Source: an uncultured Bacillota bacterium (lineage in GTDB: Bacteria > Sysuimicrobiota > Sysuimicrobiia > Sysuimicrobiales > Segetimicrobiaceae). Taken from it: a stretch of 64,000 nt of DNA. The DNA lies in NCBI GenBank assembly GCA_963804645.1, contig CAWDRG010000001.1:128696-192695 (forward strand). Direction: 5' to 3'. A program made the translations under genes and the position numbers. The notes below the pieces were generated by a model that was given only the letters and a program-made list of their open reading frames with translations, ran no database searches and was not told the DNA's origin. Position 1 is the stretch's first letter. The number at the start of each line of letters is the position of its first letter. This document shows positions 17,811 to 24,454 of this stretch, piece by piece.

Positions 17811-19421
17811 CTACGCGCGCCCCCCGCGGCCGAACGCGCGGAGCAGCTCGATCTCCCGGACCCCGAGCGCGGCGCAAACGGCCAGATACACCGCGCCGCC
17901 GAGCAACAGGGCCGTCCCAAGCTGCACCACGGCGCCGCCCAGGTGCGCGGCGCTGACGAACCTCCCCAGCACACGCAGCGTGATCAGCATCGTCACGGCG
18001 AGCGCGGCGGACGCGATCGCGGTGCGGACCGCCGTCAGGGCAATGTCCCGACCGCCGAGCCGGCCGAGGCGCCCGCGCAGCAGCCACAAGAGGACGCCCA
18101 CGTTCACGATCGAGACGACCGAGGTGCAGAGCGAGATGCCCAGGTACCCGAACCACCGGAGCAGCAGCCAGTTCCCGGCCGCGTTCAGGGCGATCATGAA
18201 GACCCCTACCCGCACCGGCGTGCGCATGTCGTGGAGGGCGTAGTACGTGCGCGTCACGATATAGTAGGCGGCGTACGGCACGGTGCCGACGGCGAACGCC
18301 GCCAGCGCTCCGGCGACGGCCTGCGTCGCCGCCGGCTCGAACATCCCCCGCTGGAACAGCACCCGGACCATGAGGTGGCTCGCCGCGAACGTCGCCGCCA
18401 TCACCGGCATCATCGTGAACAGCACGCCCCGGAGCCCGAGCGACGTCGTGTCCCGCAGCTCGTCCCTCCCGCTGCCCGCGGCGTGCCGCGACATCGTGGG
18501 GAACAGCGCGGTGGCGAGCGACAGCGCGAAGATCGCGACCGGCGCCTGGATCAGCTGAAACGCGTAGTCGAGCACGGCCACGTAATCGACACCCGGCGGG
18601 CCGACCAGGAACGAGGCGAAAAAGCGGTTGACGTTCGAGTTGATCTCGATCACGGCGAGGCCGAGCATCGCCGGCAGCGCCAGCCGCCCCATGTCCCGGA
18701 TCACGGGATGCGCCAAGTCGATGCGCGGCGTCCAGCGCAGGCCGGCCGCGCGCGCGGACGGCAGCTGGACCAGGAACTGCGCCACCCATCCCGCGAGAAA
18801 GCTCAGGGCGATGCCGAGGATCCCGATCCGGGGCGCGAGCAGGAACACGCCCCCGATGATGACGACGTTGAAGACGCTCGGCGCGACCGCCGCCATCGTG
18901 AACTGCCGGTGCGCGTTGAGGTAGCCGGTCGCGAACGCCGACAGCGCGAGGAACACCATCGACACGAACATCACACGGGTCAGGACGATCGCCTGCGCGA
19001 TGACGCCGGGATTGTGGATCAGGTATCCCGGCGCGGCGATCGGCACCAGCACCGGCGCCGCGACCACGCCGATGACCACCATCGCCAGGCCGATCAGAAT
19101 GACCAGGTTGAGCGTGCTCGTGACGACCCGCTCGGTCTCTTCCGGGTCTCCCCGCAGCAGCACGCGGGTCAGCGTGGGGATGAAGACGATGCTGAGGGTG
19201 CCGCCGAGGAAGAGACGCTGGACGAAGAACGGAAGGGAGTACGCGATCACGAACGCGGCTCTGACCGACGTCGCGCCGAACATCGCGGCGATCACGACGT
19301 CCCGGACCAGACCGAGGACTCGGCTCGCGATCGTCGCGACGGCGATCACGCTGGCCGCTCGAGCCAACCCACGGGCCGAGGTCGCGGGACGAGCCGTGGC
19401 CCCGGGTTTGACGCTCTCCAT
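17811..19421 (-). CDS. murJ: Lipid II flippase MurJ
   Basis: SRVLGLVRD, FIP, ATALFP, YYALHDMRTP motifs; many TM segments. Confidence 0.93.
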   Translation of the reverse strand: MESVKPGATARPATSARGLARAASVIAVATIASRVLGLVRDVVIAAMFGATSVRAAFVIAYSLPFFVQRLFLGGTLSIVFIPTLTRVLLRGDPEETERVVTSTLNLVILIGLAMVVIGVVAAPVLVPIAAPGYLIHNPGVIAQAIVLTRVMFVSMVFLALSAFATGYLNAHRQFTMAAVAPSVFNVVIIGGVFLLAPRIGILGIALSFLAGWVAQFLVQLPSARAAGLRWTPRIDLAHPVIRDMGRLALPAMLGLAVIEINSNVNRFFASFLVGPPGVDYVAVLDYAFQLIQAPVAIFALSLATALFPTMSRHAAGSGRDELRDTTSLGLRGVLFTMMPVMAATFAASHLMVRVLFQRGMFEPAATQAVAGALAAFAVGTVPYAAYYIVTRTYYALHDMRTPVRVGVFMIALNAAGNWLLLRWFGYLGISLCTSVVSIVNVGVLLWLLRGRLGRLGGRDIALTAVRTAIASAALAVTMLITLRVLGRFVSAAHLGGAVVQLGTALLLGGAVYLAVCAALGVREIELLRAFGRGGRA

Positions 19422-19565
19422 AGTCGCCGACATTATAGCACAGGCCTCACGCGGACCATCGCGATGGGAAGCACACGGTAGTGTACGGTGTTGTGTGTAA
19501 AAGCAGGGACCCCAAGAGAGAGGGCGTACCCCCGACCTGACCAACCGAAAGGAGGGATACGCCCG

Positions 19566-20924
19566 ATGGCCAGTGTAGCCGCACTGACCGATCTCACCGT
19601 AGCCGATTTGTGGAGGGAGGTCAAGGATGAAGCGACCTTGTGGGGCGACGTGTCTCGGGAGACGCTCCGCACGGTCAAGCTCTTGTTGGAGAACCGGATG
19701 CACGATGAGTTGATCAACCATCTGAATGCTGGCCGGTATACTCGGAATCCGGACCGGCAGGGGTATCGGAATGGCGTCTACCGCCGCCGCTTGGTGACGA
19801 CGTGGGGCACCATTCCCGATCTCCATATCCCCCGGGCCCGCCAGAGCGGGTTCCAGCCCTCGGTGCTCGGCCGCTACCAGCGCCGCACCAGCGACGTCAA
19901 CGCGCTCGTCCGCGCCGTCTTCCTCGGCGGCCTCTCGACCCGCCAGGTCGGGCCCGTCCTCGCCAAGCTGCTCGACGACGTGGTGAGTCCCACGACCGTC
20001 TCGACGATCACCCGGGCCTTAGATCAGGCCGCGGCGGCCTTCCACCACCGGACGCTGGGCGATGACTATCAATATCTGTTCCTCGACGCCGTCAGTCTCC
20101 GGGTGAAAGGGCTCGCGGGGAGCAAGCGCCGCTTGATTCTCGTGGCCTACGGCATTCGGCCGACCGGGCAGCGGGACCTGATCGATTTCCGGCTGGCCCG
20201 CTACGAGACCCAAGCCACCTGGGAAGCCTTTCTCACGACGCTGGCCTGCCGCGGGTTGGTGGGGAAACAGTTGCAGCTGATTACGACGGACGGCCAGCGG
20301 GGCCTCCATGCCGCCCTCGATTTGGTCTATTCGGACGTCCCGCGCCAAGCGTGCTGGGTCCATGTCCTCCGCAACGTGGCGAATCGGCTGCGGGTCAAGG
20401 ACCGGGAGGCGTGTCTGCGGATGGCGCGCCGGATCTATCAGGCGCCGACCGTCCACGCCGCGAGCCGCCTCCTGCGGCAGTGGGTCCAGGCCTGGCAGGC
20501 CACGGCCCCGGCGGCGGTCGCCTGTCTGACGCGCGAGGAAGACGCCCTGCTCAGCTTCTATGCCGTCGCCGAGGCGGACTGGCGACGGGTGCGCACGACG
20601 AACGCGATCGAACGGGTGTTTCGCGAAGTCCGCCGGCGCACGCGCCCCATGACGTGCTTCACGAACGTGGCCAGCTGTGATCGGATTATCTATGCGATCG
20701 TGTATGCTCTGAACGTCCGGCAGGCGAGGCGCTCTCTCTCAAGGGAATCTACACATAACTCTAGTATGAGAGTCAACGGTCGGGTGAAAAGGATCTGGAC
20801 CGTCCCCCCGGTACCGGTGAGTGGGGCCCGTGATGCCCACTACCCTCCCGGAGGAGGCGATCCAGATGCAGATGACGATCGGAGTGCGCCGGCGTATCGC
20901 GAAACAGACCCAACGCCGAGCTGA
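19566..20924 (+). CDS. IS256-family (Mutator) transposase, C-terminally extended by the nested insertion
   Basis: GYRNG, YLFLDA, TTDG, CxxH (CWVH), RTTNAIERVFREVRRR; the native stop TGA now lies at 22445-22447. Confidence 0.93.
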   Translation: MASVAALTDLTVADLWREVKDEATLWGDVSRETLRTVKLLLENRMHDELINHLNAGRYTRNPDRQGYRNGVYRRRLVTTWGTIPDLHIPRARQSGFQPSVLGRYQRRTSDVNALVRAVFLGGLSTRQVGPVLAKLLDDVVSPTTVSTITRALDQAAAAFHHRTLGDDYQYLFLDAVSLRVKGLAGSKRRLILVAYGIRPTGQRDLIDFRLARYETQATWEAFLTTLACRGLVGKQLQLITTDGQRGLHAALDLVYSDVPRQACWVHVLRNVANRLRVKDREACLRMARRIYQAPTVHAASRLLRQWVQAWQATAPAAVACLTREEDALLSFYAVAEADWRRVRTTNAIERVFREVRRRTRPMTCFTNVASCDRIIYAIVYALNVRQARRSLSRESTHNSSMRVNGRVKRIWTVPPVPVSGARDAHYPPGGGDPDADDDRSAPAYRETDPTPS

Positions 20925-22161
20925 ACTGACACCGGAGACGTTGATTGTGGCCTTGGATCTGGGCAAACACCAGCACGCCGTATGGGTGACTGATTCGACA
21001 CGCATTCCCCTGGATACCTGGGTGATGCCGACCAGTCCCGAAGGGTTTGCCACTCTCTTCGATCGAACCGCGCGCCTGCAAGAGCGATTCGGGCGCCCCC
21101 AGTTGCTGTTCGCCATGGAACCGACCAGTCACTTTTGGAAGCTGGCCGCACAGCAGATCACAGACCGCGGCGCGCGCTATCGCCTGGTGCAACCGTTGTC
21201 CGTGCGGCGAGCGCGAGAAGAACAGCGGTACACCTGGGCGAAAGGCGACCGGATCGACGCAGAACTGATCGCCACCCTGATTGCAAACGGGACATGGCTG
21301 GAGAAGCAGCTGGAAACGGGACCGTGGGGCACTTGGGAACAACTGGCGCGCACGCGGCTTCACTTGGTGCAGCAGCGGGCCGATATCTTGCGAGAACTGC
21401 TGGCACTGGTCGAGCTGTGGTTTCCAAATTATCCCTACTTGCCCCACGGAGTGACGCAACCGGGCTCGGTCGCGGTGTTGCGCAGTTGCCCCACGCCGGC
21501 GGAGATTCAACGCCTGAGCGCCGAGGCGTTTCTGACCCGCGTGCGTGCCCACTATACCGGAGCGCGGTTCCTCCCACGCCGTATCTTGCGGGTCTATCAC
21601 GCGGCCAAGCACACCTGGGGCCTGCGAACTGATCGGTTGACCGCCGGCTTGCGCATTCGCATGGCGGTCCGCCGCTACGCATTACTGACCGAGCAGATTG
21701 CGACAACGGAACGTCACCTCGCCCGATTCTATCGCGCCAGCGGCGCGCGGGCCCTGTTGGAGACCATTCCAGGCTTGGGCGCTGCGGTGGCCAGTACGCT
21801 CGTTGCGCTGATGGGCCCGGTCAATCGCTACGATCGTAGTCGTTGCGTCGTGCGGCTCGCCGGGGCGGAACCGACCGAAAATGCGTCTGGCACATTTCAA
21901 GGGCACACTCCGGCGAGTCATCGCGGGCGCGGGGCGCTGCGATTGGTGGCCTACCAGGCAGTCCTCGGCCTCATTCGCTGTAATCCCGAGTTTCGAGCCA
22001 GGTACGATTGGCTAACCACACGACCGAAGCGGCCGCTCCATCAGATCGCGGCCCGCGTCGCGCTGGCCAATAAACTATTGCGTACCATTTATACGATACT
22101 TGTCACACACTGTCCGTACGATGCTTCCGTGGCGCGCGGGGAGGGGCGGAACTCGCAGTGA
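20866..22161 (+). CDS. IS110-family DEDD recombinase/transposase
   Basis: RuvC-like ALDLGK, MEPTSHFW, KGDRIDA; C-terminal LETIPGLG, TENASG (conserved Ser), SHRGRGALR; ATG after GGAGGAGG. Confidence 0.95.
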   Translation: MQMTIGVRRRIAKQTQRRAELTPETLIVALDLGKHQHAVWVTDSTRIPLDTWVMPTSPEGFATLFDRTARLQERFGRPQLLFAMEPTSHFWKLAAQQITDRGARYRLVQPLSVRRAREEQRYTWAKGDRIDAELIATLIANGTWLEKQLETGPWGTWEQLARTRLHLVQQRADILRELLALVELWFPNYPYLPHGVTQPGSVAVLRSCPTPAEIQRLSAEAFLTRVRAHYTGARFLPRRILRVYHAAKHTWGLRTDRLTAGLRIRMAVRRYALLTEQIATTERHLARFYRASGARALLETIPGLGAAVASTLVALMGPVNRYDRSRCVVRLAGAEPTENASGTFQGHTPASHRGRGALRLVAYQAVLGLIRCNPEFRARYDWLTTRPKRPLHQIAARVALANKLLRTIYTILVTHCPYDASVARGEGRNSQ

Positions 22162-22167
22162 TCAGTA

Positions 22168-22369
22168 CCGTCCTGCTAGGGCAGCCCGGCACCGCATCTC
22201 TTGGGCACAACCCGATGTCAAGCATGGGCACGCCCTCCCGCGTACCCCGGATGGCGGCTGGTGGGAACACCCCGTATCGCCACTAGAGTGGGATGGGAGG
22301 ACGAGACTCAAGTGGGACGCGTACAGAAACTGTTTCTCAATACTAGGTTATAGCTCACTAAGCAGGCGG
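22168..22369 (+). ncRNA. Putative bridge RNA/seekRNA of the IS110 element
   Basis: Closing stem 22168-79 with 22358-69, internal hairpins, TGTCAAG antisense to the target and ATACTAG antisense to the donor junction. Confidence 0.75.
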
Positions 22370-22551
22370 CGAGAAAAAACGGCCCCCTGCGCACGGGGAG
22401 ACATGTGTCACCGAGGGGACTTGACAAGACTCTCATAGGCTGCTTGACACTACCGAAGCACACCGGCTTAATGCCGTTTTTCCGAGTTCCAGCGCGCGAC
22501 GTGAAGAGCAACTGATGGTCGAGCAATTTCCCGGACCGGTATCCTGCATCC

Positions 22552-22929
22552 ATGAAGCGGACGACGATGCCTTGTACCATTTGTGCCACCTCGCTGAATC
22601 CCAACGGGGTCGCGGTGGGGACTCCGTACCAGGTCAGTAGTGGCAACTGGAACTTTGATATCAAACCGGGGCCCAAGCTTGGAAACGGCGAAAGCAGTTA
22701 CGACACTGTCCTGATCGTCACCTATAAGGATGGGAAGAAGCAATGCCTCATCATGCGCCCCCTTGGGACGGTGGTCTACAACCCGGCCGGAACGGCCGTG
22801 ATCCTGACAATTGTGTTCGACGAAGGGGGATCCGTGAAGACGCATCGGGAGGTCTCGTTGACCAATTGGCTTCCGCGGCCCACGGTCACGACGCCCTCTC
22901 CGACGCCCAATCAACCGGGCGGTGACTAG
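22552..22929 (+). CDS. Hypothetical protein
   Basis: 125-aa ORF with natural-looking composition and a Pro/Thr tail, lower GC than its flanks; no motif recognised. Confidence 0.45.
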   Translation: MKRTTMPCTICATSLNPNGVAVGTPYQVSSGNWNFDIKPGPKLGNGESSYDTVLIVTYKDGKKQCLIMRPLGTVVYNPAGTAVILTIVFDEGGSVKTHREVSLTNWLPRPTVTTPSPTPNQPGGD

Positions 22930-23091
22930 GTACCCGCGGCGTCCGAGCGGCCCCGCCGTTCGGGATGAGCCGTGTGGGGCGTATCGCTCGCACGGCCGCA
23001 TGTGCTACAATGAGCGGCGCGCCCGGAACGCTCGCCACCGGCAGGTGCCGGCCCGGTCGAGCGCGCGGGCAGTGGCGTCGGAGGTGTCGGG

Positions 23092-23352
23092 GTGGCCAAG
23101 CGGACAAAGTCGGGCTTGAAGCGTAAGCGGCAGACCGTCAAGCGTACCGCCCGCAATCAGGCGGTGCGGACGGAGTTGAAGACCCTGATCAAGAAAGCGC
23201 GCGAGGCCGGGGCGTCCGGCCCGGATGAACTCCGCGCGGCCGTGCGGGCGCTCGACTCCGCCGCGCACAAGGGCATCGTGCACCGGAACACCGCGGCGCG
23301 CAAGAAGTCGCGCCTGATGAAGCGGTTCGCCCACGCGGGCGCACCGGCCTAA
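23092..23352 (+). CDS. rpsT: 30S ribosomal protein S20
   Basis: AKRTKSGLKRKRQ..RN..KT..LDSAAHKGIVHRNTAARKKSRL; GGAGGT SD. Confidence 0.96.
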   Translation: MAKRTKSGLKRKRQTVKRTARNQAVRTELKTLIKKAREAGASGPDELRAAVRALDSAAHKGIVHRNTAARKKSRLMKRFAHAGAPA

Positions 23353-23374
23353 CGTCCGGCACGCCGGCTGCGCC

Positions 23375-24454
23375 TTACGGAGCCGCCGGTCCGGATTTTC
23401 CGGATCCGCACAACCGCACGATCAATGTCTCGAGCACGAGCCGCGGTGCCATCGCGCCGGTCTTGATCGTCGCGTCCGCCTCGAGCAGGACCGCCAGCAT
23501 CTCGGCTGGCGGCACCCGGTCGAACGCCCGGAGTTGATCCCGGTAGCGCCTGAACAGCCACGCGCGGTTGCCCAAGACCTCGCGGACCTGCTCGCTCGGA
23601 CGCTCGGCCCGCTCGCCGCGGTCGAGCAGCACCTGGGCGCGGAGCAGCATCCGGATCTGGTCCTCGAGAAGATACAGCACGCGCAGCGGCGGCTCGCCCG
23701 CCTCGATCAGCGTCTGCAGCAGTTCGAGCGCACGCCCCGCCTGATGGCGCCCGACGGCGTCCGTCAGGTCGAACACCCCGGCTTCCGCCACGTGGCTCGC
23801 GATCGCGCGCACGTCGTCCGCCGTAATCTCCCGTCGGTCCCCGACGTACGCGGCCAGCTTCGCGATCTCCAGCCCGAGCTCTCGCAGCCCGCCGCCTACC
23901 AGCAGCACGAGCGTGCGCGCCGCCTCGGGCTGGACGGTCTTGCCCTCCTGCTCGGCGCGCACGCGGATCCACGCCGGGAGATCCTGGACGTCGAGCGGGC
24001 CGCACGCGATCACCCGCCCGGTCCGTTGGGCCACGCCGTACAGGCGGCGGCGCTGGTCCAGCTTCTCCGCGGCGAGGATCAGCGTCGACGGCGGCGCGGC
24101 GGGCTCGAGGTACGCGGCGAGCGCGTCCTGATCGGCCGGACGCAGCGCCTCCGAACGGCGGACCAGCACGACCCGGCGCGCGCCGAAGAACGGCAGCGTC
24201 TCGCAGCGCGCGATGATGTCCGCGGCCGGCGTGTCGCCCGCATCGAGCGTGTCCAGGTTGAGGGCGCGCTCGGCGGCGGGCACCAGCTCGTCGAGCAGCG
24301 TCGCCAGCGCCTGCTCGGCCAGCACGTCCTCTCCGCCGAGCAGCAGATAGACGTGCGGCGGCCCCCCGGCACGGGGGCGTCCCGCGGCGGCGCCCGCGCT
24401 CGGCGCGCGCCCGCGGGGCGGCGCCGCCGGACGCTCCGCGCGGGACCGGGTCAC
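23375..24454 (-). CDS. holA: DNA polymerase III delta subunit
   Basis: [44 protein letters not shown]; convergent with rpsT. Confidence 0.92.

Follow-up and report, generated by a model that had tools for sequence, protein, structure and literature searches.

RNA-guided recombinase systems of the IS110 family have been known since 2024. The closest described ones are the bridge RNA system of the insertion sequence (IS) IS621, which belongs to the IS110 group (PMC11208160, PMC11208158, PMC13626964; structures 8wt6-8wt9), and the seekRNA elements of the IS1111 group, such as ISEc11, ISPa11, ISKpn4 and ISPst6 (PMC11187229). The element described here belongs to a distant, uncharacterised branch of these systems. 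It is an intact IS110-family IS of 1,682 bp (20763-22444, plus strand, with the CT core counted at the right end) located in a stretch of 64,000 nucleotides (nt) from an uncultured Bacillota bacterium (contig CAWDRG010000001.1, positions 128,696-192,695), which is called the window and to which all coordinates refer. Its DEDD/serine recombinase is very likely guided by a bridge RNA that is predicted to be encoded 3' of the gene and on the same strand.

In IS621, the two bases located 3' of the right-target guide (RTG) pair with donor positions 6-7 and, after top-strand exchange, the two bases located 3' of the right-donor guide (RDG) pair with target positions 6-7. These handshake bases block the exchange when they pair with their own DNA (PMC11208158). 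According to Durrant et al., many IS1111-type RNAs carry their donor-binding bases in a multi-loop (PMC11208160). Some IS110-type elements have a downstream non-coding region, and the portion of the seekRNA paper cited here reports no RNA from one of them; this paper also describes circle-junction promoters for both IS groups (PMC11187229).

The element of the window resembles IS621 in its DEDD and serine recombinase, its CT core and its insertion without duplication. Its predicted RNA also shows two loops, target then donor, with a handshake dinucleotide after each 3' guide, and in each loop the 5' strand would pair with the bottom DNA strand and the 3' strand with the top strand, as described for IS621 (PMC11208160). 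Matches of the IS621 type were found for the RTG (7/7), the RDG (5/5), the left-donor guide (LDG; 5 contiguous plus 1) and the left-target guide (LTG; 6/9 plus one wobble), and the handshake pairs are CA with TG and AG with CT. However, the RNA of IS621 is encoded before the gene, whereas here only 103 nt precede the ATG and the RNA domain follows the stop codon. The subterminal repeats (10 bp versus 2-3 bp) and the recombinase (431 versus 326-341 amino acids) are also longer than in IS621, and the donor arm appears to hold an extra helix between the donor guides.

With the IS1111-group elements named above, the locus shares a long downstream non-coding region, subterminal repeats, a promoter at the circle junction and specific short targets (PMC11187229). 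The layout of the IS1111 group, in which the subterminal repeats measure 7-17 bp and a short left end contrasts with a long, RNA-bearing right end (PMC11208160), is found here. Insertion into terminal repeats of other transposons is also known for the IS1111 members IS4321/IS5075 (reference list of PMC11208160). The order of the guides is different, since in four IS1111 members the match to the top strand comes first, 5' of the match to the bottom strand (PMC11187229), whereas here this order is reversed and of the IS110 type, the putative bottom-strand guide (22193-22201) lying 5' of the top-strand guide (22216-22222). The size of the recombinase falls outside the range of 330-350 amino acids given for IS1111 transposases (PMC11187229).

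The element, its target site and its recombinase

An IS256-family element carries the insertion in its right terminal repeat. Seven other copies of this IS256 element in the same genome, 94-97% identical, end in ...CT-TGACACTACC; the right ends of the other copies read ...CTACACA(T/A)AAC(T/A)-CT-TGACACTACC and are followed by unrelated flanks. The copy L008 carries exactly CATAACTCTTGACACTACC, that is, the uninterrupted site ...CATAACT-CT-TGACACTACC. In the window this end is split: ...CATAACTCT runs up to 20762 and is followed by AGTATGAGAGTC..., and ...CATAGGCTGCT runs up to 22444 and is followed by TGACACTACC, the last 10 bases of the IS256-family target, at 22445-22454. Comparison of the uninterrupted ends with the split one therefore delimits the element as 20763-22444, reading AGTATGAG...GGCTG-CT. 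An initial annotation, which had proposed a bridge/seekRNA-type guide for the adjacent recombinase, had set the non-coding end at 22427; this limit has to be moved to 22444, while the target and donor sequences that it had used agree with the uninterrupted IS256 copies.

The crossover dinucleotide CT is present at 20761-20762 and at 22443-22444 and only once in the empty site. Judging by the IS256 ends of the genome and by contigs of sequencing runs, filled and empty sites differ by the element plus one CT, with no target duplication; the contigs showing the empty IS256 site come from runs X12 and X2. This short-core, site-specific insertion, with neither duplication nor terminal inverted repeats, is that of the IS110 family. 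The 10-bp subterminal repeats sit 2 nt (left) and 7 nt (right) from the ends of the element, whose left non-coding part has 103 nt and whose right one has 283 nt (22162-22444). The element is single-copy in its own genome. Its predicted target is the IS256 right terminal repeat, ...CATAACT-CT-TGACA.... A scan of the window's genome with a composite "ideal" target was uninformative, as no site with fewer than 3 mismatches appeared except the RNA gene itself.

With respect to other sequencing data, 17 run entries from 5 studies contain part of the element, and one of the runs may be where the window comes from. Four runs were examined at the locus, all as contigs; X13 and X15-X17, with small shares, do not enter the evidence. 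In the soil run X6, from another study, the element is present at low depth with 5-6 differences per contig, and the flanks depart from those of the window 17 nt to the left and 7 nt to the right of the element. We take this to be a separate insertion event at an identical 24-nt sequence.

The recombinase carries the Pfam domains PF01548 (5.7e-19) and PF02371 (8.7e-17) and matches the NCBIfam model NF033542, "IS110 family RNA-guided transposase", with 171.2 bits (curated cut-off 140). ATG 20866 is the likely start because the close homologues have 431-433 amino acids. IS110-family enzymes are defined by a RuvC-like DEDD domain and a C-terminal Tnp domain whose catalytic serine lies in a G-x2-P-x4-SG motif (PMC11187229). 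D46, E100, D143, D146, G348, P351, S356 and G357, the last four belonging to this motif, are invariant in an alignment of 11 sequences. Both domains and the motif support the view that the protein is an intact IS110-family DEDD/serine enzyme. Alignment to the solved IS621/ISCro4 chains covers only the last ~128 residues (E about 3e-7). A tblastn comparison with plasmids returned identities of at most 29% and generic family names only, so that no ISfinder name could be assigned.

Ten database proteins (P0002-P0011) share 70-88% identity with the recombinase, the next tier being at 37-39%. A metagenome scan yielded 11 loci: L023 is the window's own sequence, five loci (L024-L028) show 77-87% identity, and the other five align over part of the protein at 26-30%. 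L026 and L027 represent the same insertion, and only these two enter the 3' end (78 nt and 204 nt); none of L024-L028 reaches the right terminus, and L027 is the sole close relative readable in the RNA region. The left flanks of the close relatives differ, all of them with CT before AGTATGAG: ...ACACCCCT-CT in L026/L027, ...CCACACTT-CT in L025 and ...TTTAGTGA-CT in L028.

Two more distant families could be compared with the window's family (family A). Family B, obtained from a scan of species genomes, consists of 9 loci with 38-43% protein identity in metagenome-assembled genomes of Chloroflexia, Limnocylindrales and Gemmatimonadales, and family C is represented by L043 (30% protein identity). 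Family B elements have the same layout as the window's; they measure about 1,640 bp, of which the 3' end takes up about 254 nt. Families B and C share with the window this layout, an RNA domain found by one model, the guide registers and a junction promoter design in which TTGACA-17-T is joined to AGxAT. They are unlike it in their protein (30-39% identity for L013-L020 and L043), in their core, AT instead of CT, and in their targets, N7-C-AT-CAG in family B and GGGCGGA-AT-GTTTCAC in L043. The family B core was placed at the second AT of GGGATGAT because this choice fits the junction promoter design and all three families. With the first AT as the core, an option that was dropped, the promoter spacer would be 15 nt long and the guide register would change.

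The element of the window is absent from 100 relatives (E<=1e-30) and from 93 other genomes of the window's phylum (1e-40). Among 401 genomes sampled around family B, two matched, one of which was already known, and five family B/C genomes contained no additional copies. The target of L043, GGGCGGAATGTTTCACC, occurs again as an intact copy 12 nt downstream of the element, and this repeated motif is therefore taken as its natural target.

Table 1. Position and description of the features discussed in the text (window coordinates)
Feature	Position	Strand	Description
IS256-family target element	19477..20762	+	Transposase_mut open reading frame from 19488; Pfam PF00872 at 2.9e-83
Left subterminal inverted repeat TATGAGAGTC	20765..20774	+	Partner GACTCTCATA at 22428-22437; 10 nt, 100% complementary (repeat search)
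Recombinase gene	20866..22161	+	431 amino acids; ATG 20866; open frame back to GTG 20821 (frame 20821-22161)
Predicted bridge RNA domain	22165..22324	+	About 160 nt, directly after the recombinase stop codon; covariance model and fold
Putative left-target guide CGCAUCUCU	22193..22201	+	Same sense as left target plus core, CATAACT-CT; 6/9 plus one G.T wobble
Putative right-target guide UGUCAAG	22216..22222	+	Exact 7-nt reverse complement of core plus right target, CT-TGACA
Putative target-loop handshake guide CA	22223..22224	+	Complementary to TG, the last two bases of the left donor (22441-22442)
Putative left-donor guide GGCUGGU	22256..22262	+	Same sense as left donor plus core, GGCTG-CT; first core base mismatched
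Putative right-donor guide ACUAG	22282..22286	+	Reverse complement of core plus right donor, CT-AGT; UACUAG in L027
Putative donor-loop handshake guide AG	22287..22288	+	Complementary to CT, the last two bases of the left target (20759-20760)
ATACTAG	22340..22346	+	Second exact complement of CT-AGTAT; outside the conserved domain, inside the RNA-library contig; role unconfirmed
Terminator-like hairpin and T run	22374..22400	-	Only such site in 20700-22500; shuffle mean 1.3, not above chance
Predicted circle-junction promoter, -35 box TTGACA	22421..22426	+	Spacer of 17 nt (22427-22443), then -10 box formed by T22444 and AGTAT (20763-20767)

Some side observations concern these loci. At least 8 copies of the IS256-family element are present in the genome, with the right-repeat variants CATAACTCT-, CAAAACACT- and CATAAC-C before TGACACTACC, and a 73%-identical relative ends in AAAAGAGTTGACACTACC (loci L002-L008 and L010). 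Only the first of the three variants carries the IS110-family element in this genome. A 71-nt contig of X2 (window 20719-20764) runs through the IS256 end to ...ACTCTAG and continues into AT-rich sequence unlike the IS110-family element; there may be another insertion at the same CT in the X2 community. To the right of the insertion, a stretch of 118 nt (22469-22586) is repeated with 92% identity at G000:C15:388876-388991 (L009) and overlaps the start of a 125-amino-acid open reading frame (22552-22929) without Pfam match. The contig of L026 opens with an inverted copy of the left end (L026:1-81; 78.6% over 84 nt), about 1.3 kb upstream of the full copy (L026:1389-2882), which suggests two copies in opposite orientation or a rearrangement. 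The family C element lies inside one unit of a short tandem repeat, (T)TTxGGGCGGAATGTTTCACC (L043:3037-3075). The C-terminal domains of the L014 and L043 recombinases give weak, sub-threshold matches (25-27 bits, cut-off 100) to NF052498, "TIGR-Tas system RNA-guided endonuclease".

The predicted RNA domain: conservation, fold and possible expression

The RNA domain is predicted to fold into an outer stem (22165-22182/22305-22324) that encloses a target arm (22184-22229) and a donor arm (22231-22303). The stem GCCCGGC (22184-22190)/GCATGGGC (22222-22229) and the hairpin TTGGG-CACAA-CCCGA (22201-22215) described in the initial annotation are present in the first arm. That annotation had also proposed a covariance model from homologous ends as a check. 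Such a model (R1) was built from six family B sequences only, leaving out the window's family and using a hand-drawn structure, and was searched on both strands of 83.6 kb; its E-values are rough. Its top match is the window itself, at 22165-22334 on the plus strand (38.7 bits, E about 4e-6), the next match in the window reaching 13.7 bits. L027 (E 0.0044) and L043 (E 0.045) are likewise recovered by R1, each match being located just 3' of the recombinase stop. Two further clades of this protein family retain both the sequence and the structure of the domain.

With respect to the predicted pairs, 48 of the 59 are the same in the window and in L027, 5 are kept with a one-sided change, 2 are compensatory and 4 are broken. 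The compensatory ones are 22167:22322, where A-U becomes C-G in L027, and 22253:22281, where G-C becomes A-U. In family B, a helix formed by GCCGUCCC/GGGACGGC in most loci becomes GCCCACCC/GGGUGGGC in L019, as read from the alignment rows. The G.U pairs of several helices are possible on the plus strand only. RNAalifold recovered only the first arm from a MAFFT alignment of both families, and in one helix MAFFT misplaces L019 and L020.

One metatranscriptome run, X14, contains a 219-nt contig identical to the window at 22179-22397. It has no contig on the recombinase gene or its flanks, which is not used as evidence. No sigma-70-like promoter was found in the linear element. The predicted junction promoter would be formed when the ends are joined, and its TTGACA box explains why CTTGACA is found inside the element as well as in the target. 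The contigs of the four runs examined contained no circle-junction joint. The terminator-like hairpin on the minus strand would stop minus-strand transcripts coming into the element from outside, and it marks the 3' limit of the RNA-library contig (22397).

Predicted guides and handshake bases

All the strings to which the initial annotation had attributed a guide function are found at their positions: TGTCAAG (22216-22222), CGCATCTCT (22193-22201), ATACTAG (22340-22346), CTGCTAG (22173-22179) and GGCTG (22256-22260). It had further argued that two core-anchored heptamers were unlikely to occur by chance. When the 283-nt end was shuffled 5,000 times with its dinucleotides preserved, TGTCAAG appeared in 48 shuffles, ATACTAG in 68 and both together in none. 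Any of 12 half-site heptamers is found in 822 of these shuffles; therefore, one stray match is unremarkable and the window alone cannot decide. Similarly, the left-target match has the quality that had been reported, but it is not the best among several 6-7/9 matches in the window.

Comparison with relatives bears out the proposed target loop. The LTG, which has the same sense as the left target plus core and would therefore pair with the bottom strand, occupies a place homologous to that of a variable guide in families B and C. When L027 is compared with the window, the most variable segment is the first loop's 5' strand (22191-22201), which includes the LTG (5 of 11 positions changed), and there are no changes in the RTG (0/7) and one change each in the LDG (22253-22262, 1/10) and RDG segments (22278-22286, 1/9). 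In family B, the homologous 5' strand is a hypervariable block of 10 nt ending in CAU, and the left flanks end in C-AT.

The longest complement of the right junction of each element always lies in the 3' strand of the first loop, with 9 nt in the window (TGTCAAGCA at 22216-22224 against TGCTTGACA at 22441-22449, 100% complementary in a repeat search) and 7-10 nt in all seven family B insertions. When the right junction of the window was shuffled, 9 of 2,000 versions reached 9 nt anywhere in the RNA, and 57 of 60 cross-family junction controls gave 5 nt or less (two gave 6 nt and one 7 nt). L020 offers a natural compensatory case, since its right flank is CCG (CAG in the others) and its guide ACGGAU (ACUGAU in the others). 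In L043, the guides read by eye at the places given by the model match 8/9 (RTG), 6 plus one G.U of 7 (RDG), 6 contiguous (LDG) and 6 contiguous (LTG); because they carry one mismatch or wobble, exact-match scoring misses this locus.

The initial annotation had also asked whether guides covary with insertion sites. The 3' strands do track the junctions, but the LTG signal is weak within family B. At the eight non-core positions, the LTG agrees with the left flank in 7 cases in L020, 6 in L015 and L016, 5 in L018 and L043, 4 in L013, and 4 plus one wobble in both the window and L027. The mean agreement is 4.45 for cognate and 2.78 for non-cognate combinations, and 16 of 20,000 permutations reach the total of all 11 pairs. 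This covariation is suggestive, not strong. The assignment of the target arm is made with good confidence.

For the donor arm, the assignment is probable. The LDG has the same register in families B and C, there with a mismatch at the second core base. The RDG covers exactly the core and the three bases before the subterminal repeat, and its place is homologous to that of UCCUAU in family B and AUGCUAU in family C. A helix (22252-22257/22277-22282), supported by the compensatory change at 22253:22281, separates the two donor guides. The donor guides were set by complementarity within 1-2 nt because the model alignment puts them one base apart in different families. The longest complement of the left junction in the 3' strand of the second arm measures 8 nt in the window, where ACTAGAGT (22282-22289) is the exact reverse complement of ACTCTAGT (20758-20765), and 7-9 nt in six of the seven family B insertions; the seventh, L016, lacks such a stretch owing to its GT left core.

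The putative handshake bases of the window, CA and AG, each lack a fit to their own DNA. They make the RNA perfectly complementary to the integrated junctions, over 9 nt on the right and 8 nt on the left. In family B, the first handshake pair, opposite the donor TG, is CA in 4 of 6 RNAs and CC in the other two, while the second is GU in all six, the target positions 6-7 being AC (3), GC (4) or TC (1) in 8 insertions. The corresponding pairs in L043 are CA opposite CG and UU opposite GA. Handshake position 7 fits in both loops of all three families.

These features can be arranged in a mechanism similar to that of IS621. An RNA extending over about 22165-22324, possibly to about 22397, would fold into the outer stem and the two arms. 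The guides of the first arm would read the target, the right terminal repeat of the IS256-family element, and GGCUGGU and ACUAG in the second arm would read the joined ends of the element (...AGGCTG-CT-AGT...) in the excised circle. After top-strand exchange, the handshake guides CA and AG would pair with the other DNA. Circularisation would assemble the TTGACA-17-TAGTAT promoter, which would drive both the recombinase gene and the RNA. We infer that the recombinase would bind this RNA, that the pairings would be used and that the guides could be reprogrammed.

Alternative readings and significance

The proposal of a bridge/seekRNA-type guide is supported by the intact enzyme, by an RNA domain conserved in two other clades, by the variable 5' strand of the first loop, by the IS621-like order and polarity of the guides and by handshake bases that follow the IS621 rule in both loops. 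Several observations weigh against it. The 160-nt domain, with a minimum free energy of -71.6 kcal/mol, folds only moderately better than its shuffles (z -2.11; 5 of 200 as good), and no such advantage over shuffles is seen for the 284-nt stretch 22162-22445 (z -0.37). No Rfam family matches, a permissive search of 19000-24000 having given 3 irrelevant matches (E>=4.5) far below gathering. The LTG agrees with its target at no more than 6 of 9 positions, with one additional wobble, and the insertion in the X6 context uses this site too; the LTG of L027 shows an identical score in the same register. L014, L017 and L019 have poor LTG matches (3, 3 and 2 of 8, respectively), and when only family B is permuted, 1,194 of 20,000 permutations attain the observed agreement. 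A single close relative can be read within the RNA region, and it lacks its right end. The LDG and the RDG are partly paired in the predicted free RNA, the 5' part of the LDG being able to pair with 22277-22282, and the donor-arm guides shift one base between families. The X14 contig gives neither strand nor ends and could come from DNA carry-over.

A different donor assignment, put forward in the initial annotation, takes ATACTAG as the RDG, paired with CTGCTAG or GGCTG, and would imply an RNA architecture longer than the 160-nt domain. We regard it as unlikely. With 7 nt, compared with 5 nt for ACUAG, no other core-anchored complement of the left end in the 3' non-coding region is as long as this heptamer, which is also infrequent in the shuffles and lies within the RNA-library contig. 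However, it falls outside the domain of the family B model, and L027, despite an identical left end (AGTATGAGAGTC), reads AACACGA at its place. No downstream counterpart exists in five family B loci or in L043; 4 of 5 family B loci carry a single core-anchored site complementary to the left end, located at the second arm, and L016 carries none. As for the left-donor candidates, GGCTG is at the homologous place, whereas CTGCTAG is not conserved (CCGCTTG in L027). The guide at the homologous place is ACUAG, which together with the following AG(U) gives 8 nt of perfect complement to the left junction. ATACTAG may be a chance match or an auxiliary site; its position inside the sole RNA-library contig keeps the latter conceivable.

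Another reading would restrict the guide function to the first arm (about 22184-22229), acting as a short seekRNA, with the protein recognising the ends by the 10-bp repeats and the second arm serving as scaffold. RNAs of 58-96 nt with only two target matches suffice in four IS1111-type elements and one IS110-type element (Siddiquee et al., PMC11187229), and the long subterminal repeats and an LDG with a core mismatch and only 5 contiguous matches point in the same direction. Nevertheless, this reading is quite unlikely, as the donor-arm strands match the differing ends of three families (ACUAG/CT-AGT, UCCUAU/AT-AGGA and AUGCUAU/AT-AGTAT) and in each of these families the handshake bases of the donor loop fit the target. 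Finally, the conserved end could be a protein-binding transposon end or a 3' untranslated structure without any guide, the complementarities being due to chance or to the TTGACA of the junction promoter. TGTCAAG does complement the element's own CTTGACA (22420-22426), which holds the -35 box, and the unremarkable fold of the whole end and the lack of Rfam matches agree with such an explanation. It is, however, extremely improbable in view of the compensatory pairs in both families, G.U pairs that work on the plus strand only, guides that covary with flanks across three families, the fit of both handshake dinucleotides and a protein family that NCBIfam names RNA-guided.

The guided bridge RNA reading has consequences for annotation, since 22165-22324 should be marked as a non-coding RNA gene and not as an empty spacer. 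The element parasitises another mobile element, and its insertion in the IS256 terminal repeat should disable that end. It has a mixed layout, combining IS1111-like traits (a 3' RNA and long subterminal repeats) with the guide order and handshake logic of IS110/IS621; the portions of the IS621 and IS1111 papers cited here hold no experimental description of this combination. It is a tentative and rather doubtful suggestion that families A, B and C form a deep, uncharacterised lineage of bridge recombinases with this layout and a large recombinase (407-433 amino acids). If so, the RNA would have moved between the element's ends with guide polarity unchanged, and ATACTAG could be an auxiliary junction-pairing segment of a longer RNA. 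Work is under way to turn bridge/seekRNA recombinases into programmable tools that insert, excise and invert DNA, and orthologues that differ in size and RNA layout are sought; the lineage would provide a new orthologue for programmable recombination. The element itself indicates that the design rules of IS621 (two loops, strand polarity and handshake dinucleotides) persist in a branch whose protein barely aligns to IS621, and that they hold even though the predicted RNA is at the opposite end of the element, which helps the prediction of guides from sequence alone.

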